A stretch of 63,122 nt of DNA from an uncultured Actinomycetes bacterium (GCA_903868545.1 CAIPVR010000306.1:1-63122); one strand, 5' to 3'; positions 3,296-59,931 are shown, counted from the stretch's first letter. Notes: a model not told the origin generated them from the letters alone. Program-made: numbers and translations.

Positions 3296-3311
3296 ATGAC
3301 GTGGCTGTCAG
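3296..3311. promoter_or_regulatory. operator-like palindrome, site 1
   Basis: ATGACGTGGCTGTCAG (reverse complement CTGACAGCCACGTCAT). It lies upstream of the DUF35-thiolase-CoA-transferase operon, 9 nt from its TACACT box. Confidence 0.55.
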
Positions 3312-3353
3312 GTCGACGGTGGCGCCGCCCGGGCCGGGGCCGGCTCGGGCCGT

Positions 3354-3854
3354 TCAGGACCGGTGGAGCAGGTTCATGGTCGAGGTGACCACGGGGTCGC
3401 CGGCGTCGTCGGTGTAGGTCGTCTCGATGACCATGAAGGTCATGGTGCGGTCGCCCGACTGCTTCGTGTAGATGTCCTTCACCACGCCGCGCTGGTGGAG
3501 CTTGTCGCCCACCACGACGTCACGGTGGAAGGTGAACTCCTGCTCGCCGTGCAGGATGAGTCCACCCGTCGCGAGCAGTGTGCCCATCACCTCTGCCATG
3601 GGGTTGGAGCCGCCGGTCGGGTCCGGGGGCTGCTCCTCCTCCCACTGGCCCCAGTTCTGGGCGGCCGAGAAGAAGTAGGTGGGCGGGGCGGGGAGGTCAC
3701 GGAAGCCGGCGGCGACGGCTGCGTCCCGGTTGCGGTACAGCGGGCTGTCGTCGAGCACGGACGCGGCGAACGCGGTGACGGTGGCCCGCTCCACGGTCAC
3801 CACCCCCTCACTGGTCGGCCGGCCGATCCGGGAGTTGAGGTCGAGTTCGGTCAT
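3354..3854 (-). CDS. MaoC-like hotdog hydratase subunit (N-terminal-type)
   Basis: Only the last 166 aa of ORF 3354..5129 look real, starting at MTELDLNSRIG (ATG 3854, aa count checked). The rest of that ORF is Arg/Pro artefact antisense to the ACAD gene. Confidence 0.8.
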   Translation of the reverse strand: MTELDLNSRIGRPTSEGVVTVERATVTAFAASVLDDSPLYRNRDAAVAAGFRDLPAPPTYFFSAAQNWGQWEEEQPPDPTGGSNPMAEVMGTLLATGGLILHGEQEFTFHRDVVVGDKLHQRGVVKDIYTKQSGDRTMTFMVIETTYTDDAGDPVVTSTMNLLHRS

Positions 3855-3928
3855 GGGTGGTGGTCCCCCTGTGGCGCTGCGGCCGAGGTGGCGGTGGGTG
3901 GTGAACCCGGCCCCGGGGCGGCCGGTAT

Positions 3929-3944
3929 CTGACATCCGTGTCAT
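3929..3944. promoter_or_regulatory. operator-like palindrome, site 2
   Basis: CTGACATCCGTGTCAT lies in the divergent MaoC/ACAD spacer, 2 nt before TACGCT. Confidence 0.6.
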
Positions 3945-3959
3945 GTTACGCTGCCGGCC

Positions 3960-5111: not shown

Positions 5112-5136
5112 TCGCGCCGGGCCCCGCACTGCGCCG

Positions 5137-5568: not shown

Positions 5569-5602
5569 TCCCCCTGCCTCGATCGTGTGCCCGGGATCGT
5601 AC

Positions 5603-5618
5603 CTGACACGCGTGTCAG
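5603..5618. promoter_or_regulatory. operator-like palindrome, site 3 (perfect)
   Basis: CTGACACGCGTGTCAG lies upstream of the MaoC gene. TACGAT follows 1 nt later on the minus strand. Confidence 0.6.
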
Positions 5619-5699
5619 ATCGCAGCCCATCGGCGTCGGTGGCTGGGCGGTGGGTCGGCGCCGGGTCGCCGGTGCCGGCCGGCCGGTGAGGGGGAGGGC

Positions 5700-7076
5700 T
5701 CAGCGGGACCCGGCGAAGCGCGGGAGCCACGCCGAGGTGGCCTCGAGCATCTCGTCAGCCATGCGGACGAGGGTGTCGTGGTCCGAGCGCCCCGCCAGCG
5801 GGTCGAGGAACAGCGCGTCGAGCACCAGTGCCCGGTCGCCGCTGATCGCCGCCTCCACCACGAGTTCCTGCTCGGCGCTGATCCGCCGGACCTGCTCGGC
5901 CAGCACGGTGGGCAGCGCCGCCACGTCGCGTCCGCGCACGCCGTCGGCGTCGACGGTCACCATGCTCTCCACCACCACCTCCCCGGGGAGGTCGGGCACC
6001 TGGCCGTGGTTGGCGATGTTGAGCGGGAGATCCCGCGGGTGGTCGCGCAGGCGGCTGTCGATCAACTCGGCCACGAGTTCGCCGCTGGGGTCGGCGGGGA
6101 GGTCCTCGGCGGCGGCCAGCCGCTCGAACTCCGCGGTGAAGGCGGCGAGCCAGTCGCGGCGGTCGTCGATGGTGGTGAGGTGGACGTTCCAGCGCTCGCC
6201 CCAGCCCGACTCCTCGGTGAGGAAGCCGGGGAAGAACTCCACGAGGTGGCGGTCACCGGCTGCGGGGAGCACCCCGAAACGGGCGAAGAGTTCGAGCTTC
6301 ACCTTGTTCGACTCGAGCAGTGAGCCGAGGGTGAAGGCGCCGCCCAGGCTCACGGCCTCGTGGCCGGTGATGCCGGGGATCACCAGCGGCTGGGCCAGCG
6401 CGTCCTCGTCGGCGAGCAGCTCCCGGAGCCGGGCGAGCCCGTCCTCGCCGTCGAGGTCGAGCTCGGTGATGAACGGCAGGTGGTTGACCCCCGCCACCGT
6501 CGGGCGCAGGTCGCCGCGGTCGCAGCCGAACAGCATCGCGAGTGCGTGCAGGGTGATGGTCACCTCGTGGCACATGCCGATGGCCTGCACCGGCGTCTCC
6601 CGCAGCACCGCCCGGGTGAGTGTGGTCATCGGGTTCGTCAGGTTGAGCATCCACGCGTCGGGGCAGAGCTCCTCCATGTCGCGCGCGATGTCGAGCATCA
6701 CCGGGATGTTGCGCAGCCCCCGCAGGATCCCGCCCGGTCCCACGGTGTCGCCCACGGACTGGCGGATGCCGTGGCGTTCGGGGACCGAGAGGTCGTGGTG
6801 CATGGAGTCGAGCGCGCCGGTGGAGATGCACACGACCACGTGGTCGGCACCGTCGAGCGCCGCCCGCTGGTCGGTCGTGCCCACGGCGGTGAGGCCGATG
6901 CCGCGCACCTCCGCCACGTGGTGCACGAAGTCGACCATCCGCGGGATCGGGTGGGGGTCGATGTCCTCGATGACGATCTCGGCGTCGGCCAGGGACGGCG
7001 TCCCGGCGATGTCGAGCAGCAGCTTGGGGATCCACTGGTAGGACCCGCCGCCGATGAACACGATCCGGGGGGACAT
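5700..7076 (-). CDS. glycoside hydrolase family 4 (NAD/Mn-dependent glycosidase; alpha-glucuronidase/alpha-galacturonidase-like by context)
   Basis: N-terminal IVFIGGGS NAD-binding fold and the GMCHE metal/catalytic motif are present. The length (458 aa) is typical of GH4. Confidence 0.85.
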   Translation of the reverse strand: MSPRIVFIGGGSYQWIPKLLLDIAGTPSLADAEIVIEDIDPHPIPRMVDFVHHVAEVRGIGLTAVGTTDQRAALDGADHVVVCISTGALDSMHHDLSVPERHGIRQSVGDTVGPGGILRGLRNIPVMLDIARDMEELCPDAWMLNLTNPMTTLTRAVLRETPVQAIGMCHEVTITLHALAMLFGCDRGDLRPTVAGVNHLPFITELDLDGEDGLARLRELLADEDALAQPLVIPGITGHEAVSLGGAFTLGSLLESNKVKLELFARFGVLPAAGDRHLVEFFPGFLTEESGWGERWNVHLTTIDDRRDWLAAFTAEFERLAAAEDLPADPSGELVAELIDSRLRDHPRDLPLNIANHGQVPDLPGEVVVESMVTVDADGVRGRDVAALPTVLAEQVRRISAEQELVVEAAISGDRALVLDALFLDPLAGRSDHDTLVRMADEMLEATSAWLPRFAGSR

Positions 7077-7090
7077 GACACGGATGTTAG
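7075..7090. promoter_or_regulatory. operator-like palindrome, site 4 (spans GH4 start codon and hydrolase stop codon)
   Basis: ATGACACGGATGTTAG (reverse complement CTAACATCCGTGTCAT). It is identical to site 2 except for one base. Confidence 0.55.
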
Positions 7091-9687: not shown

Positions 9688-9703
9688 CTAACACCATGGT
9701 CAT
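9688..9703. promoter_or_regulatory. operator-like palindrome, site 5
   Basis: CTAACACCATGGTCAT lies in the uxaA/uxaC divergent spacer and covers the candidate ATGs at 9696 and 9702. Confidence 0.5.
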
Positions 9704-11189
9704 GTTTACGGGGGCGGGCGCCGGTGAGGGTCCGGCCACGGGACCGGGGGCCGGGCCGGGGGCCGGACCGATGGCCGGACCGATGGCACTGGAACTGCAC
9801 CCCGACCGTCTCTTCCCGGCCGAGCCGTCGGTGCGGGCGATCGCCCGGGAACTCCACGGTCACGTGGCCGAGCTGCCGATCGTGTCGCCCCACGGCCACA
9901 CCGACCCGGCGTGGTTCGCGCTCGACGAGCCGTTCTCCGACCCCACCCGGCTGCTGGTGACGCCCGACCACTACCTGACCCGGATGCTGCACAGCCAGGG
10001 CGTGGCGCTCGAGGACCTCGGCGTGCAACCGCTCGACGGGTCCCCGGTGGCAGATCCTCGCTCGGCGTGGCGGACGTTCGCGTCCCACGTCCACCTCTTC
10101 CGGGGCACGCCGTCGGGCCTCTGGCTCGACCAAACCTTCGCCACCGTGTTCGGCCTCGAGCAGCGGCTCGGGCCCGCCACCGCCGACCTCTACTACGACC
10201 GGATCGCCGAGGCGCTGGCCACCGACGCCTTCCGGCCGCGGGCGCTCCTCGACCGCTTCGGGATCGAGGTGCTGGCCACCACCGAGTCGCCGCTCGACGA
10301 CCTCGCCCACCACGACCGGCTCATCGCGGAGGGGTGGGGCGGCCGGGTGATCACCACGTTCCGGCCCGACCCGGTGGTGGACCCCGACTTCGAGGACTAC
10401 GGCGCCAACGTGGCCCGTCTGGGCGAGCTCACCGGCTGCGACGTGACCCGCTGGGACGGGTACCTCGAGGCCCTCCGGGTGCGGCGTGCGGACTTCCGGG
10501 CCCGCGGCGCCACCGCCACCGACCACGGCCACCCCAGCGCCGTGACGGCGGACCACGACCGGGCGACCTGCCAGCGCCTGCTCGACGCCGCCCTCGCCGG
10601 CACCCTCGACCCTGGTGGTGCCGAGCAGCTGCGGGGCCAGGTGCTGGTGGAGATGGCGGCCATGAGCCTCGAGGACGGCATGGTGCTGCAGCTGCACCCC
10701 GGGTCGCGCCGCAACCACAGTCCCCGGGTGCTCGAACGGTTCGGCCGTGACAAGGGCGCCGACATCCCGGGCCGCACCGACTACGTGGACGCCCTCCGTC
10801 CGCTCCTCGACCGGTTCGGCCTGGAGCGGGACCTGCGGATCATCCTGTTCACGCTCGACGAGTCCACCTACGCCCGCGAGCTGGCGCCCCTCGCGGGCTT
10901 CTACCCGTGCCTCACGCTCGGACCGCCGTGGTGGTTCTTCGACAGCGTCGAGGGCATGTGGCGCCACCGTCGTGCCGTCACCGAGACGGCCGGCTTCGCC
11001 AACACCGCCGGCTTCAACGACGACACCCGGGCCCTGCTGTCCATCCCGGCCCGCCACGACGTGGCCCGCCGTGTGGACTGCGCCCACCTGGCCACGCTCG
11101 TGGCCGAGCACCGGCTGTCGCTCGACGACGCCGCCGACCTCGCCGAGGACTGCGCGGTGCGCCTCGCCCGCCGCGCGTACCGCCTGTGA
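9696..11189 (+). CDS. uxaC: glucuronate/galacturonate isomerase (uronate isomerase)
   Basis: The real C-terminal ~470 aa of ORF 7953..11189 carry LHPDRLFP, SPHGHTDP and WWFFDS. In-frame candidate starts are 9696, 9702, 9771 and 9783. I chose 9696 because TAGTTT lies 8 nt upstream, consistent with a leaderless start. Confidence 0.8.
   Translation: MVMFTGAGAGEGPATGPGAGPGAGPMAGPMALELHPDRLFPAEPSVRAIARELHGHVAELPIVSPHGHTDPAWFALDEPFSDPTRLLVTPDHYLTRMLHSQGVALEDLGVQPLDGSPVADPRSAWRTFASHVHLFRGTPSGLWLDQTFATVFGLEQRLGPATADLYYDRIAEALATDAFRPRALLDRFGIEVLATTESPLDDLAHHDRLIAEGWGGRVITTFRPDPVVDPDFEDYGANVARLGELTGCDVTRWDGYLEALRVRRADFRARGATATDHGHPSAVTADHDRATCQRLLDAALAGTLDPGGAEQLRGQVLVEMAAMSLEDGMVLQLHPGSRRNHSPRVLERFGRDKGADIPGRTDYVDALRPLLDRFGLERDLRIILFTLDESTYARELAPLAGFYPCLTLGPPWWFFDSVEGMWRHRRAVTETAGFANTAGFNDDTRALLSIPARHDVARRVDCAHLATLVAEHRLSLDDAADLAEDCAVRLARRAYRL
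9761..9784 (+). repeat. 12-bp tandem duplication (x2) containing an in-frame ATG
   Basis: GGCCGGACCGAT GGCCGGACCGAT places two ATGs (9771, 9783) 12 nt apart in the uxaC frame. Confidence 0.8.
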
Positions 11190-16190: not shown

Positions 16191-18299
16191 TCAGCCCGCC
16201 GGCTCGGGGTCGCGCGGCAGTCCGAGCAGCCGCTCACCGATCACGTTCCGCTGGATCTCCGACGTGCCCCCGGCGATCGTGAGGCAGCGGTTGGCGAGGA
16301 AACCGAAGGTCCACTGGCCGGGTGGCCCGGGCTCGGTGCCCGCCCCGTCGGGGCCCAGCAGCGACAGGCCGGCCTCCTGGGTGCGCTGGTCGTGCTCCAC
16401 GCCGAGCAGCTTGCGGACGCTGGCCTCCGGGCCGGGCTGCGCGCCCGACAGCGACCGTGCCGCGGTGCGGAGCCCCATCACGGCCAGCGCGTGCGACTCG
16501 GCCACCAGCGCGCCCAGCTCGTCGAGCACGAGCGGGTCGTCGCCGTCGACGGCGCCGGCGTCGATCCGGTCCCTGACGAGGTCCACGAGGGCCTCGATGC
16601 CGCCGCCGAAGGACGACCCGCTGCCCATCGAGACCCGCTCGTTGGCCAGGGTGGTGCGGGCCAGTGGCCATCCGCCGTCCACCTCGCCGATCACGCAGTC
16701 GTCGGGCACGAACACGTCGTCGAGGAACACCTCGTTGAACATCTCCAGTCCGGTGAGCTCGCGCAGGGGCCGGATGTCGAGCCCGGCCGAGCCCATGTCC
16801 ACGATGAAGTAGGTGATGCCCCGGTGCTTCGGGGCGTCGGGGTTGGTGCGGGCGAGACAGATACCCCAGTCGGCGTCGCGGGCCATGGTGGTCCAGACCT
16901 TCTGGCCGTTCAGCAGCCAGCCGCCGTCGGTGCGGATCGCCGCGGTGGTCAGCGCGGCGAGGTCGGAGCCGGCCTCCGGCTCGCTGAACAGCTGGCACCA
17001 CGAGATGGTGCCGTGCAGCGTGGGTCGCACCCAGCGCTCCTGCTGTTCCGGTGTGCCGTGGGCGGCGATCGTGGGGGCCGCCCACGCCCCCACCTGGAGG
17101 TGGGGGGCGCGCACCTTCGCCCTCCGCAGTTCCTCGTCGATCACCACCTGCTCCACCGCTCCGGCCCCGCGGCCCCACGGCTCGGGCCAGTGCGGCACCA
17201 CCAGGCCCGCGTCCGCGAGCGGTGCCCGGCGCTCCTCCTTGGGGAGGGACGCGATCTCGTCCACCACGACGGCGATGCGGGCGCGGACCTCCTCGGCCTC
17301 GGGCGGGAGGTCGAGGGTGAGGTGCCGGCGCGTGCCCCGGAGCGCGGCCCGTGCCAGCTCGGTCCGCCGGTGCCGCCGGTCGCCGAGGAGTTGCCGGAGG
17401 GCCACCGCCCTGCGGAGGTAGAGGTGGGCGTCGTGCTCCCAGGTGAAGCCGATGCCGCCGAGGACCTGGATGGCGTCCTTGGCGTCGTCGACGAAGGCGT
17501 CGAGCGCGAGCGCTCCCGCCGTTCCGACCGCCACTCCGGCCGACGGGCCCCACGGCTCGTCGCCGTCGAGGGCGCCGGCGGCGTCCCACACCGCGGCCCG
17601 GGCCGCCTCCAGCCGCACGAGCATGTCGGCGCAGCGGTGCTTCACCGCCTGGAACTGGCCGATCGGGCGTCCGAACTGGCGGCGCTGGCGGGCCCAGTCC
17701 GCCGCGGTGTCCACGCACCACGAGGCGCCGCCCACGGCCTCGGCCGCGGCGAGCACGGTGCCGATGGCCCGCACCTGTTCCCCGGTGACGCCGGGGAGGG
17801 GGATGCCGTCGACCGGGTGGGCGGGGGACCGGAGCGTGGCGAGGTCCACGGTCCCGTCGAGCGCAGGGGTCGGGCCGAGGTCGAGGCCGGCAGCGGGCGC
17901 CGCCACCCAGGTGTCGTCGTCGCCCACCCGGAGCACCACGACCTCCGCGGTGGCGCCACCCGGGACGGGGCCGTCGCCCACCGCCACTGCCGCGGGACCG
18001 GTGAGGTCCACCCCGGCGGTCCTCGCCACCGCCCTGGCCCATGCGGACGGCAGGATCGGCCCGGGCGCGACCGCCCGGCCCAGGCCCTCGAGCACCACCG
18101 CGAGCTCGGAGAAGCCGAGGCCGTCGTCGGGGGACAGGCCGAGCCAGCCGAGCTGGTCGAGTTCCTTCCAGAACGGGGGCAACTCGTCGGCCGGCGCGTC
18201 CATCGCCGCGCGCGCAGTGTCGGGTCCGCACCGCTCCTCGGCGAACCGCGCCACCGCCGCGGCCAGCAGTTCGTGGTCGTCACCGATGGCCAGGCCCAC
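16191..18299 (-). CDS. fused two-domain acyl-CoA dehydrogenase (FadE34-like architecture)
   Basis: 702 aa. The N-terminal half is ACAD-like (GRPIGQFQAVKH, GGIGFTWEHDAHLYLRR). The C-terminal half is a full ACAD (CQLFSEPEAGSDLAAL, IAGGTSEIQRNVIGERLLGLPR). GTG start with RBS GAGGGAG. Confidence 0.85.
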   Translation of the reverse strand: MGLAIGDDHELLAAAVARFAEERCGPDTARAAMDAPADELPPFWKELDQLGWLGLSPDDGLGFSELAVVLEGLGRAVAPGPILPSAWARAVARTAGVDLTGPAAVAVGDGPVPGGATAEVVVLRVGDDDTWVAAPAAGLDLGPTPALDGTVDLATLRSPAHPVDGIPLPGVTGEQVRAIGTVLAAAEAVGGASWCVDTAADWARQRRQFGRPIGQFQAVKHRCADMLVRLEAARAAVWDAAGALDGDEPWGPSAGVAVGTAGALALDAFVDDAKDAIQVLGGIGFTWEHDAHLYLRRAVALRQLLGDRRHRRTELARAALRGTRRHLTLDLPPEAEEVRARIAVVVDEIASLPKEERRAPLADAGLVVPHWPEPWGRGAGAVEQVVIDEELRRAKVRAPHLQVGAWAAPTIAAHGTPEQQERWVRPTLHGTISWCQLFSEPEAGSDLAALTTAAIRTDGGWLLNGQKVWTTMARDADWGICLARTNPDAPKHRGITYFIVDMGSAGLDIRPLRELTGLEMFNEVFLDDVFVPDDCVIGEVDGGWPLARTTLANERVSMGSGSSFGGGIEALVDLVRDRIDAGAVDGDDPLVLDELGALVAESHALAVMGLRTAARSLSGAQPGPEASVRKLLGVEHDQRTQEAGLSLLGPDGAGTEPGPPGQWTFGFLANRCLTIAGGTSEIQRNVIGERLLGLPRDPEPAG

Positions 18300-18383: not shown

Positions 18384-18399
18384 CTAACGTCCGTGTCAC
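18384..18399. promoter_or_regulatory. operator-like palindrome, site 6
   Basis: CTAACGTCCGTGTCAC lies upstream of the fused-ACAD operon. Confidence 0.55.
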
Positions 18400-18496: not shown

Positions 18497-18512
18497 GTGA
18501 CGCCACTGTCAG
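18497..18512. promoter_or_regulatory. operator-like palindrome, site 7
   Basis: GTGACGCCACTGTCAG overlaps the TAAGGT box upstream of the MFE-2-type SDR gene. Confidence 0.55.
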
Positions 18513-21173: not shown

Positions 21174-22873
21174 GGGTGCAACTCCTCGAGGACGTCGTCG
21201 AACCAGGGCGGGAGCGGGCCGCCGCCGACCACCACGCTGCCCGTGGGCCGGGGGTGGCTGCGGAGCCCCGTCCAGCCGGCGCCGACCGCCAACTCGGCGC
21301 CCGACAGGCCGGTGGCGTCGGGCGCGGTGACGAGTCGTTCCACCAGCGCCGCGGTGGTGGCGTCGTCGGGCGCCTCGGCGGCCACCACGACCGCGACGAG
21401 ACGCTCCTCGGTGGCGGTGCGGGCGGCCCGGGCGAGCTGTGCGAGCGCCTGGGCCCGGCTGCGACCGCCGGGGCCGCGGGCGTCGACGACGTGGACCAGG
21501 CGGAGCGGTGCGCCCCGCTCCGCGACGTGCTCGGTGGCGGCCCGGGCCCATCCGGCGTCGGTGCGGAGCCGATCGGCGAGGCCGGCGTGGCCCGCGAGGA
21601 CGGCCTGCCAGTCGGTGGGGGCGTCGGCCGGGTCGGACGGGGACGACACGACGACCACGGCGTCGGGGCCCCCGGCGAGGGTGGCGGCATCGCGGAGGAC
21701 CGTCCGCGCCCGCTCGAAGCCCGCTCCGTCGGTCCGGGCGCCGACGATCCGCACGTCGAGCCCCGCCGCCCGCAACCGCGCGGCGACGGCGGCCACCGTG
21801 GCGGTGGCGTCAGGGCCGTCGTCCACCACCACTGCGGAGCGGGTCGGTCCGGGTCCCGGCGCGCCGCGCCCGGTGCCCGTCCCGCCGTCGGTGCCGTCGT
21901 CGGTGCTGTCGTCGGTGCCGTCGGCCGGGGCGAACACGGCGCCGAAGCGGGGGTTGGAGCCGCCGGTGGTGGCCTGCGCGGCCTCGGCGGCCACGAGGGC
22001 CGGCAGCACCGCGTCGAGGACCGCGTCGAGCGGCGCGGTGCCGTCGGTGCGCACCGTCTCGAGCAGCCTCGGCGGGGCCACCAACGCCACCTCGGACCCC
22101 CCGGCGAAGAGCACCTGGCCCCGCAGCCGGCCGGGACCGTGTCCCGTGAGGTGCGCACCCAGCGGTGCGAGCTGTTCCGGTTCGGGCATGGACGCGAGCG
22201 ACAGGCCGCCGGTGGCCGCGGCCCGGCCCCCGTTGCCCGCCGCCGGTGCGCGGCGCCCGAGGGCGGCGGTCACCATGCGGGTCATCGCGATCGGTGAGAT
22301 CGCGTTGAGCGCCACCCCGGCGGGCGCGACCCGGCCGAGCTGCCACGTGAGCGAGGCGACGGCCCGCTTGGCGCAGCTGTAGGCGCCGGCATCGGCCGGA
22401 CGCCACCCCGACCCGGAGGTCACGCCGAGCACATGGCCCCGCCCGGCCGCCGCCATGACCGGCAGTGCGGCGCCGAGCATGTTGCAGTAGCCGTCGAGGT
22501 GCACCGCGAGCACCGCGGCCCAGTCCTCCTCGGTGCCCCGGGCGATGCCGGTGGGTCGGGTGATGCCGGCCACGTTGACCAGGCCATCCACGCGCCCGTG
22601 GGTGTCGAGCAGCTCGGCGAACAGGGCGTTCACGGCCTCCCGGTCGGTCACGGAGGTGTTCGAGGCCACCGCACTACCGCCCGCGGCGACGATCCGGCCG
22701 GCGGTCGTGTGCTCGGGCGCGGGAAGTTCCTCGGTGCCGTCCACCGACACCATCGGGTCCACGGTGACCACGTGGTCACCTCGCCGGCCGAGCTCCATGG
22801 CGATCGCGGCACCGATGCCGCTGCCGCCACCGGTGACCACCACCACCCGCCGCTCCGCGGCCGGGGCCGTCAT
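21170..22873 (-). CDS. SDR fused to a ~300-aa C-terminal Rossmann-like domain of unknown function
   Basis: The real part of ORF 21170..24154 starts at MTAPAAERRVVVVTGGGSGIG (ATG 22873, ATGA overlap with the BVMO stop). NVAGI and YSCAK are present. An acidic DGTDDSTDDGTD linker precedes a second alpha/beta-like domain that lacks a glycine-rich motif. Confidence 0.75.
   Translation of the reverse strand: MTAPAAERRVVVVTGGGSGIGAAIAMELGRRGDHVVTVDPMVSVDGTEELPAPEHTTAGRIVAAGGSAVASNTSVTDREAVNALFAELLDTHGRVDGLVNVAGITRPTGIARGTEEDWAAVLAVHLDGYCNMLGAALPVMAAAGRGHVLGVTSGSGWRPADAGAYSCAKRAVASLTWQLGRVAPAGVALNAISPIAMTRMVTAALGRRAPAAGNGGRAAATGGLSLASMPEPEQLAPLGAHLTGHGPGRLRGQVLFAGGSEVALVAPPRLLETVRTDGTAPLDAVLDAVLPALVAAEAAQATTGGSNPRFGAVFAPADGTDDSTDDGTDGGTGTGRGAPGPGPTRSAVVVDDGPDATATVAAVAARLRAAGLDVRIVGARTDGAGFERARTVLRDAATLAGGPDAVVVVSSPSDPADAPTDWQAVLAGHAGLADRLRTDAGWARAATEHVAERGAPLRLVHVVDARGPGGRSRAQALAQLARAARTATEERLVAVVVAAEAPDDATTAALVERLVTAPDATGLSGAELAVGAGWTGLRSHPRPTGSVVVGGGPLPPWFDDVLEELHP
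21887..21922 (-). repeat. 12-bp tandem repeat x3 in the SDR-fusion linker
   Basis: GTCGGTGCCGTC / GTCGGTGCTGTC / GTCGGTGCCGTC on the plus strand. It encodes DGTDDSTDDGTD. Confidence 0.8.
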
Positions 22874-25944: not shown

Positions 25945-25960
25945 CTAACAGACACGTCAT
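25945..25960. promoter_or_regulatory. operator-like palindrome, site 8
   Basis: CTAACAGACACGTCAT lies upstream of the amidohydrolase-BVMO operon. TAGATT overlaps its end on the minus strand. Confidence 0.55.
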
Positions 25961-25977: not shown

Positions 25978-26883
25978 TCAGCCCTGCCCCGGCACCGTCC
26001 CCGGCGACGGGCGAGGCCCCGGGACCGACCCGGTCGGGTCGTGCAGTTCGGCGAGCGCCTCGAGGCACTCGAGGTAGTGCGCGAGCGAGTGGTGGGCGAA
26101 CCGCGGGTAGGCGATCGTGGCCCCGCACCCGGCCGTCGCGGCCAGGGCCTCGCGGGTCGGGTCGGGGTCGCCGAGCGGGTCGAGGGTGGCGACGGTCGGG
26201 AGGACCACGTCGAAGTCGGCGGGTGGCTCCACCCGGTCGAGCCAGGTGCGCACCTGCTCGCCGGTGACCGCGAACGGGTTCCATCCGTCGGCCAGCGCCA
26301 CCGCCCGCCGCAGCGAGCGCAGGGTGCGGCCCCCGACCCAGATCGGTACCCGGTCCTGCACGGCGGTGGGATCGATGACGAGACCCTCGAATCGCAGGTG
26401 TTCCCCCCGGAAGGACGGCTCGGGCTCGGACATGGCGGCGCGGAGCGCCCGGAGCGCCTCGTCCGCGCGGGGCCCGCGGTCGTCGAAGGGGGCGCCGAGC
26501 AGGTCGAACTCCTCGCGCAGGCTCCCGACGCCGACACCCAGCACGAGCCGGCCCCCGCTGACGACGTCGAGCGTGCCGTAGCGCTTCGCGATCGCGAGCG
26601 GGTGGTGGTACCCGAGCACGAGCACGTGGGTGGCGAGCCGGATGCGGGTGGTGCGCGCCGCCACGTAGCCGAAGGTGGGCAGCGGGTCCCAGTACCGGGC
26701 CCCGCGCCGGCCGACCTCGGCGGCGGGGATCCCGACGTGCTCGCTGCAGGTGAGGTGGTGGTAGCCGAGGCGGTCCGCCGTCACGGCCACGGCGGCGAGG
26801 TCGTCGATCGTGGCGTCGCGTTCCCATTCGCCGTGGGTCGCGGGGTGGAACGTCACCACCGGTGAGAGCACGGCGAGCTTCAC
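25978..26883 (-). CDS. luciferase-like (LLM-class, probably F420-dependent) oxidoreductase
   Basis: The real part of ORF 25978..27468 starts at VKLAVLSP (GTG 26883, GTGA overlap). GGRLVLGVGVG is present and LRFEGLVIDP is typical of the family. Confidence 0.8.
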   Translation of the reverse strand: MKLAVLSPVVTFHPATHGEWERDATIDDLAAVAVTADRLGYHHLTCSEHVGIPAAEVGRRGARYWDPLPTFGYVAARTTRIRLATHVLVLGYHHPLAIAKRYGTLDVVSGGRLVLGVGVGSLREEFDLLGAPFDDRGPRADEALRALRAAMSEPEPSFRGEHLRFEGLVIDPTAVQDRVPIWVGGRTLRSLRRAVALADGWNPFAVTGEQVRTWLDRVEPPADFDVVLPTVATLDPLGDPDPTREALAATAGCGATIAYPRFAHHSLAHYLECLEALAELHDPTGSVPGPRPSPGTVPGQG

Positions 26884-27605
26884 GGCCACACCTCCCAGCT
26901 GACCATCGATCGGAGCGGTCCCGCGAACAGCGGCCGCACCGCACCGGTGCCCCAGCGCTCCTCGAGGAGCCCGGTGGCGCGGCCGGTGGTCGCCGCCGGG
27001 TCGTCGTCGAGGTACACGACCGTGACGACGGCGTCGTCGCGGTCGACCCGGTCCGGGAGCCGCCACAGGTCGTTGCTGCGGTAGAGGCCCGCGCCGGCCA
27101 CCCCGTCCACCTCGAGCAGGGCGGGCAGGTGCTCCCGGTGGAGCCATTGGAGCCAGGACGCGATGCCGTCGCCGGGTTCCTCGACCAGGAACAGCACCCC
27201 CCGGTGGGGTCGGAACGCAACCACCTCCGGGGCCACCAGGGCGCTCGGCGCGGCGTACCAGCGGAGATGGGCCAGCATCCGCACCCCCAGCGAGGGGCGC
27301 CGCTCGGGGAAGCGGCCGAGTCCGGCGAGGCGGCGACCGAGCTGCATGAACTCGGCGAAGGTCGGTTCCACCGGGTCCGTCACGTAGTACTGCACCAGGT
27401 TGGCGGTGTCGCCGAGCGGCCCGTCGCCGACGATCCGTGCCCGGCGGAGCCCGTCGTCCGCGATCCACCGGTGGGCGAGCACCACCCCGGGGATCCCGTA
27501 CTGCTCCGGCATGTGGTCGAGCAGGTGCCAGCGCAGGTAGCCGCCGTCGTCGTCGGCCGGTGCGGGGGGAGTCAGGCTGAAGATGCCGGCGCGGACGGGC
27601 TGCAC
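26880..27605 (-). CDS. hypothetical protein with internal tandem duplication (two alpha+beta-barrel-like halves)
   Basis: Composition is realistic and the gene is translationally coupled within the operon. YLRWHLLDHMPEQYGIPGVV (N-terminal half) echoes WLQWLHREHLPALLEVDGVAG (C-terminal half). Confidence 0.6.
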   Translation of the reverse strand: MQPVRAGIFSLTPPAPADDDGGYLRWHLLDHMPEQYGIPGVVLAHRWIADDGLRRARIVGDGPLGDTANLVQYYVTDPVEPTFAEFMQLGRRLAGLGRFPERRPSLGVRMLAHLRWYAAPSALVAPEVVAFRPHRGVLFLVEEPGDGIASWLQWLHREHLPALLEVDGVAGAGLYRSNDLWRLPDRVDRDDAVVTVVYLDDDPAATTGRATGLLEERWGTGAVRPLFAGPLRSMVSWEVWP

Positions 27606-31840: not shown

Positions 31841-31856
31841 CTAACGCCCGTGTCAG
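31841..31856. promoter_or_regulatory. operator-like palindrome, site 9
   Basis: CTAACGCCCGTGTCAG lies in the spacer between two divergent amidohydrolase genes, flanked by TAGGCT and TAGCGT boxes. Confidence 0.6.
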
Positions 31857-38184: not shown

Positions 38185-38264
38185 GCTGCGCCTCCCCGGT
38201 GGTGGCGGTCGCCGCCCGGCGACCCGGGCGGCAGCGTAGCGAGCGGGGGCTACGGTGAGCCCCG

Positions 38265-40676: not shown

Positions 40677-40692
40677 CTAACATCGGCGTCAG
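40677..40692. promoter_or_regulatory. operator-like palindrome, site 10
   Basis: CTAACATCGGCGTCAG lies in the divergent spacer between the CoA ligase (40653) and the ACAD operon (40713). Confidence 0.55.
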
Positions 40693-49656: not shown

Positions 49657-50987
49657 CGGTCCGTGGCCGCCTCGTGGGCACGGGCGTCGGGTTCGACCTG
49701 GTGCGACGTGCGGGCCCACCGGGCCGCGTCGGTCATCGACCGCTCCAGTCCGGCGGTGCAGCGGGCCATGAACGCCGTGCCGAGCGCGGCCCCCTCGGGC
49801 ACGGCCACCACGTCGACCGGCAGGCCGGTGCTGTCGGCCAGGGCCTGCATCCACGCCCCGGAGCGGCTGCCCCCGCCGGTGGCGACGATCCGTCGCGGGC
49901 GGGCCCCGACGGCCGCGGCGAGATCCAGCTGGTGGCGGACCACGAAGCCCGTGGCCTCGTAGGCGGCCCGGAGGAGGTGGGCCTGCTCGTGCTGGAGCGA
50001 CGCGCCGTGGAGCTCGGTCCGCAGGTCGCGGCGGTGCAGCGGTACCCGCTCGCCCCGCGGGTACGGGAGCCAGACCGGGAGGTCGTCGGTGGGTGCCGGA
50101 TCGTGATCCGCCCCGACCGGGACCCCCAGCCACCGGTGCACCTGGTCCACGAACAGGCCGCCGGCGTTGCTGGGCCCACCGATCAGCACCTTGCCCGGCG
50201 CGGTGTGGGGGACGGTCCAGAGGCCGGGGGTCGTCGCCCAGTCGTCGATCACGGCCCACGTGATGAGGGTGGTCCCGCAGATCACCAGCACGTCGCCGGT
50301 GGCATCAGCGCCGGCCACCACCTGCTCGCCGAGCGCGTCGATCGTGCCGCCCCCCACGAGGGCCCCGGCGGCGGGGTGCCCGTCGAGGACGGTGCCGGCC
50401 GGCGAGGTGCCGGGCACCACGACGGGGAGGGCCTCGACGGGCACGCCCGCCTCCGCGGCCCGCGCCGGGTCCCATCCCTGGAAGTCGAACAACGGGACCG
50501 CGGTCATCGCCGTCGCCGAGTCGATGGCCCCCACTCCGCACAGGGCGTGGTTGGCCACGGCCTGTGCGGGCCAGTACCCGGCCGCGTCGGGTGCGTGGGC
50601 GGCGAGCCAGCGCAGGAACGCCAGCAGCTCGCCGGAGTCACCCGCCTCGTCGGGCCGGTTGTCCTCGGTGACGCCACGGTGGTCGCCGTAGAGGAGGCCG
50701 GGGGAGCAGCCGTGGCCCGAACGGTCCACCGCGCCGAGCGAGGGGACCATCGCCGAGACGTTCACCGCCGCCACGTCGTGGCCGGCGGCCACACCGGTGA
50801 GGGCGTCGAGCACGCCGCGACGCCACGCGGTGTCGATGTCGTGCTCGAAGGCCCCGGGCCCGGGCCGCCGGAGCGGATGGGGGATCCTCGTCCGTGACAG
50901 GACGGTGCCGTCCTCGTCGGCCGCGACCGCCTTCACCGAGGTGGTGCCGATGTCGACGCCCACCGTCACCGTGCGAGAACCTGACAT
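49602..50987 (-). CDS. FGGY-family carbohydrate kinase (xylulokinase-like)
   Basis: GVDIGTTSVKA and ATGGGSRS are present. ATG 50987 lies inside the palindrome, with TATTCT 7 nt upstream. The 3' end overlaps the convergent GMC gene by 55 bp. Confidence 0.85.
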   Translation of the reverse strand: MSGSRTVTVGVDIGTTSVKAVAADEDGTVLSRTRIPHPLRRPGPGAFEHDIDTAWRRGVLDALTGVAAGHDVAAVNVSAMVPSLGAVDRSGHGCSPGLLYGDHRGVTEDNRPDEAGDSGELLAFLRWLAAHAPDAAGYWPAQAVANHALCGVGAIDSATAMTAVPLFDFQGWDPARAAEAGVPVEALPVVVPGTSPAGTVLDGHPAAGALVGGGTIDALGEQVVAGADATGDVLVICGTTLITWAVIDDWATTPGLWTVPHTAPGKVLIGGPSNAGGLFVDQVHRWLGVPVGADHDPAPTDDLPVWLPYPRGERVPLHRRDLRTELHGASLQHEQAHLLRAAYEATGFVVRHQLDLAAAVGARPRRIVATGGGSRSGAWMQALADSTGLPVDVVAVPEGAALGTAFMARCTAGLERSMTDAARWARTSHQVEPDARAHEAATDRYERFRRLTAEAVARADG

Positions 50988-50996
50988 GGGTGTCAG
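50981..50996. promoter_or_regulatory. operator-like palindrome, site 11 (contains kinase start codon)
   Basis: CTGACATGGGTGTCAG lies in the divergent FGGY kinase / Zn-ADH spacer. Confidence 0.6.
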
Positions 50997-55578: not shown

Positions 55579-56339
55579 GAGTTGTCCCCCAGGTAGGCGA
55601 CGCGGACCCGTTCGTCGCCGAGCACGTCCTCGGTGGGGCCGTCGGCGATGAGCTGGCCGTAGTCGAGCACGTAGGTGCGCTCGGCGAGGCGCCGGACCAT
55701 GGGCACGTCGTGCTCGATCAGCACGATGGCCGTGCCGTGCTGCCGGCTGACGGTCTCGAGCGTTGCGCTCATCTCCGCGGTCTCGTGGCGGTCGAGGCCG
55801 GACGACGGTTCGTCGAGGAACAGCAGTGCCGGATCGCACATCAGGGCCCGGGCCAGCTCCACCAGGCGGCCCTTGCCGAGCGACAGCGACTCCGCCGGCC
55901 GGTCGGCCCACTCGGTGAGGCCCACGAGCTCGAGCACGATCCCGCAGCGCTCGAGCTCCTCGGAGGTCGGCCGGGACCCCCGGAACAGGTCGGACCACAG
56001 CCCGCCACGCCGCGTGCGGGCCCGGTCGGCGACGAGGAGGTGGTCGAGCACGGTCATGCCGCCGAACAGCTCGATGCGCTGGAAGGTCCGGGCGATGCCG
56101 AGCCGGGCCCGTGCCGACGGGCGGAGGCGTTCGAGGCTCCTCCCCCGGAACGTGACGGTGCCGCGGTCCGGTCGCAGCACCCCGGACAGGCAGTTGAACA
56201 GTGTCGACTTGCCCGCCCCGTTCGGGCCGATCACGGCGACGAACTCCCCGTCGGCGACGTGCAGCGACACGTCGGAGAGGGCCACGATCCCCGAGAACCG
56301 CTTGGACACGGCCTCGGCCTCGAGCAGCGGCCCGCTCAC
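55575..56339 (-). CDS. livG: branched-chain-amino-acid-type ABC transporter ATP-binding protein
   Basis: Walker A GPNGAGKST, LSLGKGR and LLFLDEPSSG are present. GTGA overlap with the permease stop. Confidence 0.9.
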   Translation of the reverse strand: MSGPLLEAEAVSKRFSGIVALSDVSLHVADGEFVAVIGPNGAGKSTLFNCLSGVLRPDRGTVTFRGRSLERLRPSARARLGIARTFQRIELFGGMTVLDHLLVADRARTRRGGLWSDLFRGSRPTSEELERCGIVLELVGLTEWADRPAESLSLGKGRLVELARALMCDPALLFLDEPSSGLDRHETAEMSATLETVSRQHGTAIVLIEHDVPMVRRLAERTYVLDYGQLIADGPTEDVLGDERVRVAYLGDNS

Positions 56340-58468
56340 CCGGGGCTCCCGCTGTCGGCGGTCGGCCGGCCCGTTCCCGCGAGCGGTGGGGCGTCGGTGA
56401 CCTCGGGGGAGGGGGGCGGCACGGGATCCGATGGCCCCGTGCCGGCGTCACCGCGACGCCGCTCGACCCAGCGGACGATGGCCCCGACCGACGTTGCGGT
56501 CTGGGCCTCGATGCTGCCCTCGGGGTGTTTCGCGTAGGTGATGGCCCCGATCCCGAACAGGATGAAGGCCACGGACTGCGCCCAGTTGGGTTGGATCGCC
56601 CCGAGCGCCGAGGCGACCCAGGAGGGCGCATCGGGGTTCGACTCCACCCAGTTCCCCGGGAAGGTGAACAGCCGGGTGAGGATCGCCGGGAACAGGAAGA
56701 AGAACAGGCCCGAGAGCACCGCGGCCTGCACGCTGCGGGCCCCGGCGGACACGAGCAGCGCCACCCACACGAGTCCGATGAGGTACGGGAAGCTGCTCTG
56801 GTAGTTGGCCTGGCCCACGTAGGTGGCCATCAGGCCTCCGCCGAACCCGGCGATGGCGGCCGCCACGGTGAACGCCACCACCCGGCTCCGCCGGCCGCTG
56901 ATGCCGATCGACGCGGCGGCCACGTCGGAGGTCTGCAGCGCCTGGAGGAACCTCCCGGTGGTGCCCTCGCGGAGGCGGATCACCACGGCGGACACCGCCG
57001 CCGCGCACAGCACGGCGAACAGCAGGAACCAGCGGTCGTCCGCGAGGTCGATCGGGCCGATCAACGGCCGGGGGACCGACAGCGGGACGGCCCCGCCGCT
57101 CACCCACGACAGCGGCACGAAGATCGACTCGAACATCAGGGCGAACGCGAGGGTGGCCAGGGCCAGGTAGACGCCGTCGAGGCGGACCACCGGCACGGCG
57201 AGGAGGGCGCCCACCCCGGCGGCGATGACGGCGCCGATCACGATCGCCCCCAGGACCGACATGCCGGTCGCCGCCACCAGTTGCGCGGTCCCGAAGGCCC
57301 CGATCGCCGCCAGTGCGGCCTGGCACAGCGACAGCATGCCCCCCATGCCCACCACCACGATCAGCGACATCATGATGATGCCGAGGATGATCCCGCTGAT
57401 GACGAGCCCCAGCCAGTAGCCGTCCAGCAGGAACCAGCAGGCCGCGAGACCCAGCGCCACGACGACGGCGCCGAAGGCCCGGGTGCCCACCGTCATCCAG
57501 TGGGGCCGGACCAGCGCCACCGGCGCCGGCGGAGGTGCCTCCACCGTGGCGAGGGGATCGGTGACCTCACGTGTGGAGCGGAGCCCGGGCCGGAACAGCA
57601 ACAGCAGGAACAGCACCAGGAAGGGCAGCGCCGGACGCAGTCCCGTGGCGAGGATGCTGTCGGTGGGCAGCGACCCGGCCAGCACGGCCTGCAGCACCCC
57701 GAGCAGCAGGCCGCCCGCGAAGGTGAGGGGAATGCTGGTGAGGCCGCCGAACACGGTGGCGGCGAGCGCGGCGACCAGCAGCGTGAAGAGGTCGAGCGGG
57801 TTCAGCGACGCGAACAGCGGGGCGAGCAGGACGCCGGCGAGCCCGGCGAGGAGGCTCGACAGCATCCACGAGGTCATCGACACCCGCTCGCTGTCGACCC
57901 CGTTGAGCTCGGCCATGCGGGGGCTCTCCACCACGGCCCGCATCCGCAGGCCCAGCGAGGAGAACCGGAACAACAGGACCAGCGCGACCACCACCGTCAC
58001 GGTGGCGGCGATGGTGGCGATCTGGCCCGCGTCGAGCACGATCGACGTGTTCCGGGGCCAGAGCCACTCGTCGGTGCGCATCACGTACCAGAGTGGCGGC
58101 GGGTTCTTGCGGGACTCGTCGCCGAGCACCAGCTTGACCACCTCGGGGATGGCGATGAGCAGGCCCAGCGACGTGACCAGTTTCGCCATCGACCCCGCGG
58201 TGCGCAGGTAGCGGAACAGCACCCGCTCGAGCAGCAGTCCGATCGCAGGGCCCACCACCACCACGGCCAAGAGCGCGGCCCACAGCAGCGGCCACTCGTG
58301 GTCCTTGCGGACCACGTAGAACACGGCGGCCGATGCGTACGCCTGCGCTCCGAACGCCAGGTTGAAGACGCCCGAGGTCTTGTACGTGAGGACGAGGCCG
58401 ACCGCGAGCAGCGCGAACACGCAGCCGGTCGGGATACCGCGGACGGCGTTCTCGAGCAGGGTCTCCAC
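56336..58468 (-). CDS. fused LivH-LivM-type ABC permease
   Basis: 710 aa in two hydrophobic permease halves joined by REVTDPLATVEAPPPAPVALVRP. The hydrophilic C-terminal tail is Pro-rich. Confidence 0.85.
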   Translation of the reverse strand: METLLENAVRGIPTGCVFALLAVGLVLTYKTSGVFNLAFGAQAYASAAVFYVVRKDHEWPLLWAALLAVVVVGPAIGLLLERVLFRYLRTAGSMAKLVTSLGLLIAIPEVVKLVLGDESRKNPPPLWYVMRTDEWLWPRNTSIVLDAGQIATIAATVTVVVALVLLFRFSSLGLRMRAVVESPRMAELNGVDSERVSMTSWMLSSLLAGLAGVLLAPLFASLNPLDLFTLLVAALAATVFGGLTSIPLTFAGGLLLGVLQAVLAGSLPTDSILATGLRPALPFLVLFLLLLFRPGLRSTREVTDPLATVEAPPPAPVALVRPHWMTVGTRAFGAVVVALGLAACWFLLDGYWLGLVISGIILGIIMMSLIVVVGMGGMLSLCQAALAAIGAFGTAQLVAATGMSVLGAIVIGAVIAAGVGALLAVPVVRLDGVYLALATLAFALMFESIFVPLSWVSGGAVPLSVPRPLIGPIDLADDRWFLLFAVLCAAAVSAVVIRLREGTTGRFLQALQTSDVAAASIGISGRRSRVVAFTVAAAIAGFGGGLMATYVGQANYQSSFPYLIGLVWVALLVSAGARSVQAAVLSGLFFFLFPAILTRLFTFPGNWVESNPDAPSWVASALGAIQPNWAQSVAFILFGIGAITYAKHPEGSIEAQTATSVGAIVRWVERRRGDAGTGPSDPVPPPSPEVTDAPPLAGTGRPTADSGSPG

Positions 58469-58498
58469 GACGGGGTGGCCGGTCGCGTCCGTCCGCCG

Positions 58499-59872
58499 CT
58501 ACTGGCGCACGGCCTCGAGCGTGCCGGAGGCCAGGTCGAAGCACACGAACGGCGTGCCGCCCGGGCCCTCCACCGGCTGGAACTTGCTGTCGACCACCTT
58601 CAGGGTCGCCGAGCAGGAGATGTTGGTCCGCTGCGTGTGGCTCTCGGTCCAGTCCACCCCGGAGAGGAGCCCGTCGGCGGTCCAGTCCGTCTCGGAGTTG
58701 ATCGCGTCGATGACCTTCTGGCGGGTGAAGTCCGGTCCGGCCTTGCGCAGGCCCTCCACGAACAGGGCGGCGTTGAGCCAGCCGACGAGGCTGTTCTCAC
58801 CCACCTCGCCGCCGGCCTTCTCGATCCACTTCCGGTAGTCCTTCATCCCCTGCGAGGGCTCGTCGCTCTCGAGCGGCAGGAACGAGGTGTAGAGGTAGCT
58901 CCCCTCGAAGAGGTCGCCGTACTCGTCGAGCAGTTCCTGGTCGTAGGCGTTGGGGAGGTACTGGATGGCCTTGACGTCCTGCTTCTTCAGTTCCTTGGCG
59001 AGGCCGACCACACCGTTGGTGTCGATGCAGGTCACGACCATGTCCACGCCGGCGTCCTTCATCTTGGCCACCTGCACCGAGAAGTCGGTGGTGCCGTAGG
59101 ACAGGGACGAATCCTTGAACACCACGGAGGCCCCGGCCTCGTCGCCGTACTTGGTGAAGGACTTGTCGTAGCCGTCGACGCACTGGCTGGACTGCGGCAC
59201 CGCGTAGCCGAGCAGGCCGACCTTCGACTTCCCCGCCTCCTTCGCGATGTAGGGGACCGCGGGCTGCTCGCAGCCGAGGCACAGGTAGGAGCCGGCCTGC
59301 CCGAACAGGTTGGCCTTGGGGTTGTCGGCCGAGCCCTGCCACTCCGGGTTGATGGTCCACCCGAAGGTGGGCACCCCGGCGGCCACCAGCTCGTCGGCCC
59401 CGGTGAACAGCAGCGTGGCGACCGGCAGCACGGCGAAGACGTTGTCCTGCTCGAGCAGTCCGCGGACCTCGTCCTTGTTGCTCGCGACCTTGTCGTCGCG
59501 CTCGCTCACGAGCTTCAGCTGCCGGCCGTTCACCCCGCCCTCGGAGTTGACCATGTCGAAGTAGGCCTTCACACCGTCGAAGGCCTGGTCGTACTTCCCG
59601 CCCAGCGGGTTCGTCACCGAGGCCACGCCGCCGACGCGGATCTCGGTGTCGGTCACGCCGGGCTCCGCGGAGGGCTTCGCGGCGCCGCCGGCGGTGGTGG
59701 AGCTCCCGCCGCCGGAGCTGTTCGAACTCGAGTTGCCGCAGGCGGGGACCAGGGCCACCGCGGCGAGCACCGCCGCCGCGGCCAGGGCCACCCGGCGCCG
59801 AGGACCGTGCCCACCCGGGCCGGTCCGCTCGGTCCGGTGCGGATCCTTCGTGCTGGTCGTTCGTGGCGTCAC
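58499..59872 (-). CDS. ABC substrate-binding lipoprotein (type I PBP, Leu/Ile/Val-binding family)
   Basis: Lipobox LVPACG is followed by a Ser/Gly linker and a PBP1 fold (NSEGGVNGRQL). GTG start with RBS GGGGGGAG. Confidence 0.85.
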   Translation of the reverse strand: MTPRTTSTKDPHRTERTGPGGHGPRRRVALAAAAVLAAVALVPACGNSSSNSSGGGSSTTAGGAAKPSAEPGVTDTEIRVGGVASVTNPLGGKYDQAFDGVKAYFDMVNSEGGVNGRQLKLVSERDDKVASNKDEVRGLLEQDNVFAVLPVATLLFTGADELVAAGVPTFGWTINPEWQGSADNPKANLFGQAGSYLCLGCEQPAVPYIAKEAGKSKVGLLGYAVPQSSQCVDGYDKSFTKYGDEAGASVVFKDSSLSYGTTDFSVQVAKMKDAGVDMVVTCIDTNGVVGLAKELKKQDVKAIQYLPNAYDQELLDEYGDLFEGSYLYTSFLPLESDEPSQGMKDYRKWIEKAGGEVGENSLVGWLNAALFVEGLRKAGPDFTRQKVIDAINSETDWTADGLLSGVDWTESHTQRTNISCSATLKVVDSKFQPVEGPGGTPFVCFDLASGTLEAVRQ

Positions 59873-59915
59873 CGTCGATCTCCCCCCGGTACGTCAGCGA
59901 GATGCGCCCAAAAAG

Positions 59916-59931
59916 GTGACGCAACTGTTCG
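59916..59931. promoter_or_regulatory. operator-like palindrome, site 12 (weakest match)
   Basis: GTGACGCAACTGTTCG closely resembles site 7. It lies upstream of the ABC importer operon, next to the only A5 run in this spacer. Confidence 0.4.

Follow-up and report, generated by a model that had tools for sequence, protein, structure and literature searches.

Palindromes in the non-coding gaps of a catabolic island

The stretch of DNA analysed here, 63,122 nt from an uncultured Actinomycetes bacterium (CAIPVR010000306.1:1-63122; hereafter the window), is a densely coding island of catabolic genes, and the element in question is a 16-bp palindrome with the core CTRAC-N6-GTCA that recurs in its promoter regions. 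Judged from its sequence and distribution, the palindrome is most probably a real, lineage-specific regulon operator, for a repressor. As open reading frame (ORF) lists are unreliable at 74% GC, genes were called with a codon-usage log-odds model trained on the window, which gave 57 genes (W numbers below) and left 1,974 bases, or 3.1% of the 63 kb, non-coding. All 57 proteins were annotated with Pfam, and the poorly annotated ones also with NCBIfam and a relaxed Pfam search.

The exact pattern CTRAC-N6-GTCA gives 13 strand matches in the window, which are 11 distinct sites; the scores given with them are from a symmetric position weight matrix (PWM) built from these 11. The leftmost copy, ATGACGTGGCTGTCAG (3296–3311, 19.6 bits), lies upstream of the minus-strand operon W04-W03-W02 (547–3274), which encodes a DUF35/ChsH2-like OB protein, an Ltp2-like thiolase and a family III CoA-transferase. 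CTGACATCCGTGTCAT (3929–3944, 24.1 bits) is found in the spacer from which a hydratase gene (W05, minus strand) and an acyl-CoA dehydrogenase gene (W06, plus strand) diverge, and the perfect palindrome CTGACACGCGTGTCAG (5603–5618, 23.0 bits) upstream of W07, a minus-strand MaoC hydratase gene with its ATG at 5568. The copy at 7075–7090, which reads CTAACATCCGTGTCAT on the minus strand (24.3 bits), lies over the internal promoter and ATG (7076) of the GH4 glycosidase gene W08, and CTAACACCATGGTCAT (9688–9703, 16.6 bits) occupies the divergent spacer between uxaA (W10, minus) and uxaC (W11, plus). Two copies stand close together: 18384–18399 (GTGACACGGACGTTAG on the minus strand, 18.9 bits) in the promoter of the minus-strand operon W17-W16, a fused acyl-CoA dehydrogenase and an acyl-CoA ligase, and GTGACGCCACTGTCAG (18497–18512, 15.7 bits) in the promoter of the plus-strand pair W18-W19, both short-chain dehydrogenases/reductases (SDRs). 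Further along, CTAACAGACACGTCAT (25945–25960, 18.5 bits) lies upstream of the minus-strand operon W23-W20, which encodes an amidohydrolase, a PtlE-like Baeyer-Villiger monooxygenase (BVMO), an SDR and a second amidohydrolase. The remaining three are in divergent spacers: CTAACGCCCGTGTCAG (31841–31856, 20.6 bits) in the 56 nt between W30 (minus, heading W30-W24) and W31 (plus, heading W31-W32), CTAACATCGGCGTCAG (40677–40692, 21.6 bits) between W37 (acyl-CoA ligase, minus) and W38 (acyl-CoA dehydrogenase, plus, heading W38-W45), and CTGACATGGGTGTCAG (50981–50996, 24.1 bits) between W46 (FGGY sugar kinase, minus) and W47 (Zn alcohol dehydrogenase, plus).

This number of sites is far above what base composition would give, since dinucleotide-preserving shuffles of the window contain 0.62 ± 0.92 matches and none of 100 shuffles reached 13. 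The relaxed core TRAC-N6-GTYA matches 12 times, with 11 matches in the non-coding 3.1% of the window and one in coding sequence (binomial P = 3e-16). Both the spacing and the letters matter: spacers of N4, N5, N7 or N8 gave zero or one match each in the window, and among 24 palindromic patterns made by permuting the letters of the half-site only TRAC had intergenic matches, the 23 permuted controls having none. The PWM separates the 11 sites (15.7–24.3 bits; 12.9–23.7 bits when each is left out in turn) from everything else in the window, the best coding 16-mer reaching 8.0 bits and the best remaining non-coding one 7.5 bits, so that the distribution of scores is bimodal and no coding match scores at least 10 bits. 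The confinement to non-coding gaps described in the first-pass annotation is thus borne out, also when intergenic and coding PWM scores are compared, where no coding match comes near the lowest site. The sole coding match to the relaxed core, GTGACCACGTGGTCAC (22765–22778, 5.5 bits), falls within the SDR gene W21, probably by chance.

The first-pass annotation had counted twelve copies. Eleven of its coordinates are the exact matches above, but the twelfth, GTGACGCAACTGTTCG (59916–59931, upstream of the solute-binding protein gene of a Liv-type ABC importer), does not fit its own pattern and is the 7.5-bit runner-up; it is indistinguishable from coding-sequence noise and at best a marginal or degenerate site. 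As 59916 is within the noise, the ABC importer should not be counted among the targets. The importer had been listed among chemically unrelated operons under the motif, and it drops out with that site, while acyl-CoA oxidation, hexuronate catabolism, the BVMO cluster and polyol/sugar enzymes stand. In the same part of the window, a minus-strand gene (56336–58468) encodes a 710-aa permease with two BPD_transp_2 units, a LivH-LivM fusion.

Co-directional runs headed by a site contain 41 genes, or 42 of the 57 when W09 takes its longer recorded start, which makes ~16 transcription units and about three quarters of the 63-kb island. Beta-oxidation of the side-chain type is represented, besides the Ltp2-like thiolase and DUF35 protein, by MaoC and hot-dog hydratases, several acyl-CoA dehydrogenases and four acyl-CoA ligases, accompanied by luciferase-like monooxygenases, and a hexuronate set comprises UxaA, UxaC, a mannitol-dehydrogenase-family oxidoreductase, KDG kinase, KDPG aldolase, the GH4 glycosidase and an esterase; the FGGY kinase and Zn alcohol dehydrogenase pair is headed by the copy at 50981. 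One of the acyl-CoA dehydrogenases (16191–18299, minus strand) has 702 aa in two tandem acyl-CoA dehydrogenase units and resembles a fused alpha-beta ChsE-type enzyme. No transcription-factor gene was found among the 57 proteins by these annotation searches, and none appears in the gene list of the left-flank contig, which has further genes of beta-oxidation. For an actinobacterial catabolic region, it is unusual to find no local regulator over at least 75 kb. Within the W30-W24 operon, W25 (26880–27605, minus strand, 241 aa) has no sequence match in Pfam, NCBIfam or the PDB, and its single-sequence AlphaFold model is poor (pLDDT 43), with nothing suggesting a DNA-binding fold.

Motif anatomy and position in predicted core promoters

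The anatomy of the motif was derived from 57 unique sites pooled from the window and the related loci described below. The conserved element extends to ~20 bp, A-n-CTRAC-N6-GTYAG-n-T, and in its fuller form to 20–22 bp, W-A-n-CTRACR-nnnn-YGTYAG-n-T-W. Within each half-site T2, A4 and C5 are ~100% conserved, position 1 is C in 71%, position 3 is G in 70% and A in 30%, and position 6 is a purine. The centres of the half-sites are 11 bp apart, and the central four bases are under no constraint. Each half-site is flanked, two bases out, by a conserved A (68%), the next base outward being A or T; further than 2 nt from the 16-mer there is no flank conservation, which indicates that the palindrome is not part of a longer repeat or mobile element. 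In the pooled set, A at position 3 never occurs in the two halves of one site. T at position 7, which creates a TAnnnT box, is more frequent in CTAAC half-sites (16 of 34) than in CTGAC half-sites (17 of 80; P = 0.007), and this suggests that the A-variant half-site frequently serves as a -10 hexamer too.

The -10 boxes and transcription starts used here are predictions from sequence, for which TAnnnT boxes were tallied around all sites. The boxes fall at discrete offsets from motif position 1, namely -3, 2, 14, 18–19 and 24–27. In the 24–27 class, the distal half-site CTGACA takes the -35 location, and all 14 boxes are followed by ATG or GTG within 6–9 nt, indicating leaderless mRNAs. With offsets of 18–19 the motif abuts the predicted -10 (as at W06, W07 and W31), and with offsets of 14, 2 or -3 it overlaps the predicted -10 and start site (as at W08, W17, W18 and W38). 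All sites map to about -37 to +8 of predicted, often leaderless, core promoters, and the earlier description of copies abutting or overlapping TAnnnT boxes or start codons proved correct, both by reading and by this tally.

The individual layouts illustrate these classes. At 3296, read on the minus strand, the motif is followed by 9 nt, TACACT, 6 nt and the ATG at 3274, with the distal half-site at the -35 location; at 3929 the order is motif, 2 nt, TACGCT, 7 nt and the ATG at 3960, a leaderless start. TACGAT lies 1 nt away from the motif at 5603, and at 7075 the predicted -10 is TAACAT, followed by 7 nt and the ATG of W08. The 9688 copy covers the likely leaderless start of uxaC (ATG at 9696) and is 4 nt upstream of TAGTAC, the uxaA -10. 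Of the close pair, 18384 abuts TAGGGT, the predicted -10 of W17-W16, and 18497 abuts TAAGGT, that of W18-W19. The copy at 31841 is 1 nt from the W31 -10 (TAGCGT, 7 nt, ATG) and 8 nt from the W30 -10 (TAGGCT, 6 nt, ATG), one palindrome lying within both divergent core promoters. Unidirectional promoters carry sites as well (3296, 5603, 7075 and 25945).

Most operon starts in the window (3274, 3960, 7076, 31826, 31871, 40650 and others) have a TAnnnT box 6–9 nt before an ATG or GTG and no Shine-Dalgarno sequence. The sequence thus points to widespread leaderless mRNAs and -10-only promoters in this organism. The recorded UxaC (497 aa) starts at the ATG within the operator-like site, and the stretch 9696–9782 would give it an N-terminal extension of low complexity, rich in Gly and Pro, in which GGCCGGACCGATG is duplicated; this putative extension is missing in the closest syntenic locus (L008, see below).

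Conservation, gain and decay in related genomes

Proteins identical to those of the window were found only in metagenome contigs, and a thiolase at least 90% identical to the window copy is labelled "Microthrixaceae bacterium" in NCBI, a family of the class Acidimicrobiia in the Actinomycetota. A scan of reference genomes with UxaA returned four close loci in metagenome-assembled genomes (MAGs), L008 and L009–L011. L008 is syntenic with window genes 8–18 at 65–86% protein identity and has kept four of four sites of the common block; in the alignments the sites (including 7075, 9688, 18384 and 18497) appear as conserved blocks in otherwise diverged spacers. No site was found in L009–L011, whose UxaA is as close to that of the window as the one in L008. 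This sister lineage keeps the uxaA -10 box and leaderless start as well as the internal GH4 promoter, all without the palindrome.

The GH4 promoter shows how a site can arise. In the sister lineage (L009:4250-4300, L011:12540-12590) it consists of TAGATT or TAGGTT, 8 nt and ATG, and TAGATTCCGCCGCCATG of L009 corresponds to TAACATCCGTGTCATG of the window (7060–7090). A few substitutions separate this promoter from that of the window and L008, which carries the palindrome cTAACATCCGTGTCATG, and there is no insertion. The correspondence indicates that the operator was built in place, by few substitutions, on an older promoter.

A scan of metagenomes with the monooxygenase returned 42 loci, and 34 related loci (417 kb) were analysed. 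They contain 48 PWM matches of at least 15 bits, 45 of them intergenic, which recur upstream of orthologs of W30/W31, W37/W38, W22, W17/W18 and W35/W36; altogether, the motif is found again at orthologous operons in ~30 related metagenome loci, and the genomes that share sites at orthologous promoters have ~70–80% protein identity. In relatives the monooxygenase ortholog has a site directly upstream (compare 25945), the 31841 site is kept in seven related loci, and the 40677 site in four (L093, L098, L100 and L120). An alignment of the W31/W30 spacer from eight sequences shows conservation at the -10 box and start codon of each gene and at the half-sites, and nowhere else. In L098 and L120 the W30 -10 is displaced by an insertion of 9 nt, and the palindrome is still 1 nt from the W31 -10. 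Footprinting upstream of orthologous operons therefore shows a conserved motif with fixed half-sites and four free central bases.

A site can also be lost. In the divergent spacer between the sulfatase gene W35 and the SDR gene W36, the window has a decayed copy at 38219–38234, CTGCCGCCCGGGTCGC in minus-strand reading (-1.1 bits), whereas in the related locus L091 the site in the orthologous spacer is intact (CTGACGCCCGCGTCAG). A gain confined to one lineage, on promoters that were already there, and the decay of one site are both typical turnover for a transcription-factor site.

The sites are specific to the catabolic island. No site occurs in ~9 kb of adjacent housekeeping DNA on the right flank (L086; ileS, a large FtsX-domain protein and an M50 protease), the MCD promoter is without the motif, and so are five promoter gaps in the window. 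In the relatives that have the motif, a site was found in 36 of 53 promoter gaps preceding island orthologs, compared to 4 of 30 other gaps (P = 1e-6), and the four non-island gaps with a site all precede catabolic paralogs. A generic promoter element, one of the possibilities that would have undone the first reading of these sites, is not what we find: the motif is absent from the housekeeping DNA, the five window gaps, 26 of 30 non-island gaps and the promoters of the sister lineage.

Several further features were seen in the relatives. The SDR/acyl-CoA dehydrogenase spacer has small extra genes between its two operator-like sites in two loci, one for a 64-aa helix-hairpin-helix-like protein (L091:16129-16323) and two for proteins of 58 and 183 aa (L095:9958-10666), which puts the sites up to ~800 bp apart. 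DNA looping between these paired sites was considered and rejected, as their spacing (113 bp in the window, 102 bp in L008, 82 bp in L110) is not in helical phase. In two distant loci (L129 and L130) the local TetR/BVMO operators differ in sequence from the motif. L130 has a palindrome GAATGACGTGTCATTC (1380–1400) before a distant monooxygenase homolog (27% identity), with ATGAC/GTCAT half-sites and a 2-nt spacer, probably the operator of a different local regulator.

A candidate operator, its rivals and its known counterparts

From these data we infer that the palindrome is bound by one sequence-specific, dimeric helix-turn-helix (HTH) protein encoded outside the window and acting as a repressor, a reading to which we give a probability of roughly 0.8. 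Promoter confinement, conservation and specificity all support the earlier proposal of an operator for a dimeric HTH repressor, in which the word repressor comes from the positions of the sites. The sites have what repressor operators generally have: an inverted repeat of fixed spacing, overlap with promoters (here predicted ones) and conservation at orthologous genes with a free spacer. The dimer would read two half-sites of 5–6 bp (CTRACR), 11 bp or about one helical turn apart, each with an extra conserved outer A. As every copy lies inside a core promoter, on the -35, filling the spacer to the -10, or over the -10 and transcription start, the bound dimer would keep RNA polymerase off the promoter by occlusion; in divergent spacers one dimer could block both promoters. 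A signal would release the protein from its operator. The lack of local regulators fits control by one remote factor. Base rates in the Actinomycetota and the analogy with McbR (see below) make TetR the most likely regulator family.

A number of observations count against this interpretation. No cognate regulator gene was found in the window, the flanking contigs or ~0.6 Mb of related loci, and a phmmer screen with 16 hand-written HTH-family seed sequences against the six-frame ORFs of all relevant loci returned only a few TetR genes, none with the motif upstream. A pathway-specific repressor would not usually combine lipid-type and sugar-acid pathways in one regulon. The -10 boxes and starts are sequence-based predictions, and a promoter scan with an E. 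coli-type consensus found nothing, being uninformative at 74% GC. Some sites put a half-site exactly at -35, where CTGACA resembles TTGACA, so that some of the signal may come from promoter sequence, or the factor may be an activator at certain promoters.

This last point leads to the strongest rival, an activating or dual-acting factor, such as a global regulator of CRP/FNR type, that replaces or assists a weak -35 at some promoters. It would account for the 14 site orientations with TAnnnT 24–27 nt from position 1, where CTGACA takes the -35 of an otherwise -10-only promoter; the 5-N6-5 layout and A/T-rich outer flanks resemble CRP-family sites, and global regulators likewise have broad regulons without local regulators. 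However, most sites abut or overlap the -10 and start (offsets -3, 2, 14 and 18–19), where a bound activator would block RNA polymerase, the -35-class sites are centred at about -28 to -31 rather than at the usual -41.5, and the half-sites are oriented opposite to those of CRP, Cmr and CooA. We consider this reading unlikely.

Very unlikely, in our view, is that the palindrome is a by-product of promoter architecture, either a general promoter element of this genome or two overlapping -35-like hexamers of divergent promoters, with TGACA in both strands. CTGACA is identical to TTGACA at five of six positions, CTAACAT contains TAnnnT, T at position 7 is commoner in A-variant half-sites, and several sites are in divergent spacers. 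But only a minority of sites have a -10 at a -35-compatible distance, others being 1–2 nt from the -10 or overlapping it, and sites occur at the unidirectional promoters named above. The motif is missing from housekeeping promoters and most other promoters outside the island, it stands in different registers to the -10, and in the sister lineage the palindrome is absent from promoters whose -10 boxes and leaderless starts are the same. A promoter element would also need neither a strict N6 nor symmetric conservation of both halves.

It is still less probable that a Type I-like DNA methyltransferase or restriction system recognises TRAC-N6-GTYA, the sites being placed in promoters by epigenetic control or by counter-selection in genes. 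The bipartite 4-N6-4 layout is like that of Type I recognition sequences, and methylation overlapping -10 boxes reportedly affects expression in mycobacteria, but conservation over ~20 bp, including C1, R6 and the flanking A, exceeds a Type I target. Moreover, the sites are concentrated in one functional gene island and are kept at orthologous promoters across genomes of ~70–80% identity, and restriction specificities usually change much faster than this.

An RNA-level hairpin (an attenuator, a processing or stability element, or a terminator) or a DNA cruciform has next to no claim on these sites: the sequence is self-complementary and the perfect copy at 5603 can form a 6–8 bp stem, but folding energies are no different from those of dinucleotide shuffles (z -1.4 to +1.9), there is no Rfam match and no T-run after the sites, most sites lie upstream of the predicted transcription start and would not be transcribed, and conservation is base-specific (invariant T, A and C) rather than a covariation of pairs. 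Remnants of a small mobile or repetitive element (REP- or MITE-like) inserting into intergenic DNA would give multiple near-identical short intergenic palindromes, but this is scarcely credible given the freely variable centre, the lack of conservation beyond 2 nt on each side, the fixed registers relative to -10 boxes and the GH4 site, which arose by point substitutions in place and without insertion.

The operator of a remote repressor is conceptually a classical system. What lifts this case above the average is that it takes in about three quarters of a regulator-free 63-kb island, with mixed chemistry and a clear birth and decay of operators. A bolder and rather doubtful extension is that the sites belong to an undescribed global carbon-catabolism control system of Microthrixaceae-like Acidimicrobiia, in which a single remote regulator replaces the layout of one regulator per operon. 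Such a system could consist of a supercluster of at least 75 kb without regulator genes, whose operons were recruited singly by point mutations on leaderless promoters, and it would possibly involve an unexpected regulator family or a general metabolic signal instead of one substrate. Microthrixaceae-type Acidimicrobiia are abundant in soils, freshwater and activated sludge and almost uncultured. To our knowledge, nothing is known about their gene regulation, and no regulatory motif has been described for the lineage. The 20-bp PWM provides a handle with which the regulon can be defined in MAGs, the regulator pointed to, and the lipid, terpenoid and sugar-acid pathways that are switched together predicted. 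The relatives, in turn, offer a clean case of regulon evolution, in which one operator was born on a leaderless promoter that already existed, one has decayed, and the sister lineage has these promoters and no operator.

Finally, we compared the motif with known operators. Text searches with several spellings of the motif gave nothing relevant, in agreement with the first-pass annotation, which had not recognised a published operator, and the literature on FdmR and TetR fatty-acid regulators contained no matching motif. Among the published operators found, the closest in layout appears to be that of McbR, a TetR-family global repressor of sulfur metabolism in Corynebacterium glutamicum, which is TAGAC-N6-GTCTA (PMC2723105). 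Both are 16-bp 5-N6-5 palindromes with an inner GAC-N6-GTC, and in both one actinobacterial repressor (here a putative one) would serve many dispersed operons through well-conserved promoter sites. The outer two bases are TA in the McbR operator, whereas the window motif has CT/AG in ~70% of half-sites and never TA. The McbR regulon covers sulfur and methionine/cysteine metabolism, in contrast to carbon catabolism here (beta-oxidation, monooxygenase, amidohydrolase, hexuronate and polyol genes); the host is Corynebacterium rather than a member of the Acidimicrobiia, and no TetR gene is linked to the window motif. The operator of AcnR, also of the TetR family, is CAGNACnnncGTACTG (PMC2723105), again a 16-bp actinobacterial palindrome with half-sites ending in NAC and GTN, but with an inner N4 and the single target acn instead of N6 and a multi-operon regulon.

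The sites of the CRP/FNR-family regulators Cmr (Rv1675c) and CooA, TGTCA-N6-YGACA (PMC4705688), have the same 16-bp 5-N6-5 layout, the pentamers TGTCA and TGACA with centres 11 bp apart, and belong to an actinobacterial global regulator with many sites. However, the order of the pentamers is everted, TGTCA...TGACA for Cmr and TGACA...TGTCA here. Identity with CRP or Cmr sites was rejected, as one dimer geometry cannot read both orientations; they are look-alikes, not relatives. In CRP/FNR sites (TGTGA-N6-TCACA) the distance from TGA to TCA is likewise different, at 6 nt compared to 8 nt here.

KstR, a TetR-family repressor of the cholesterol catabolic cluster in mycobacteria and rhodococci, recognises TnnAACnnGTTnnA, and its gene lies inside the cluster. 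Its motif reads AAC-N2-GTT, in contrast to RAC-N6-GTY here, and the island in the window differs in having no regulator gene of its own and in including hexuronate and polyol genes. In function, KstR is nevertheless the nearest analogue: one repressor works through a short palindrome repeated across a lipid- or steroid-type cluster, and both clusters are rich in acyl-CoA dehydrogenases, ChsH/Ltp2-type enzymes and acyl-CoA ligases.

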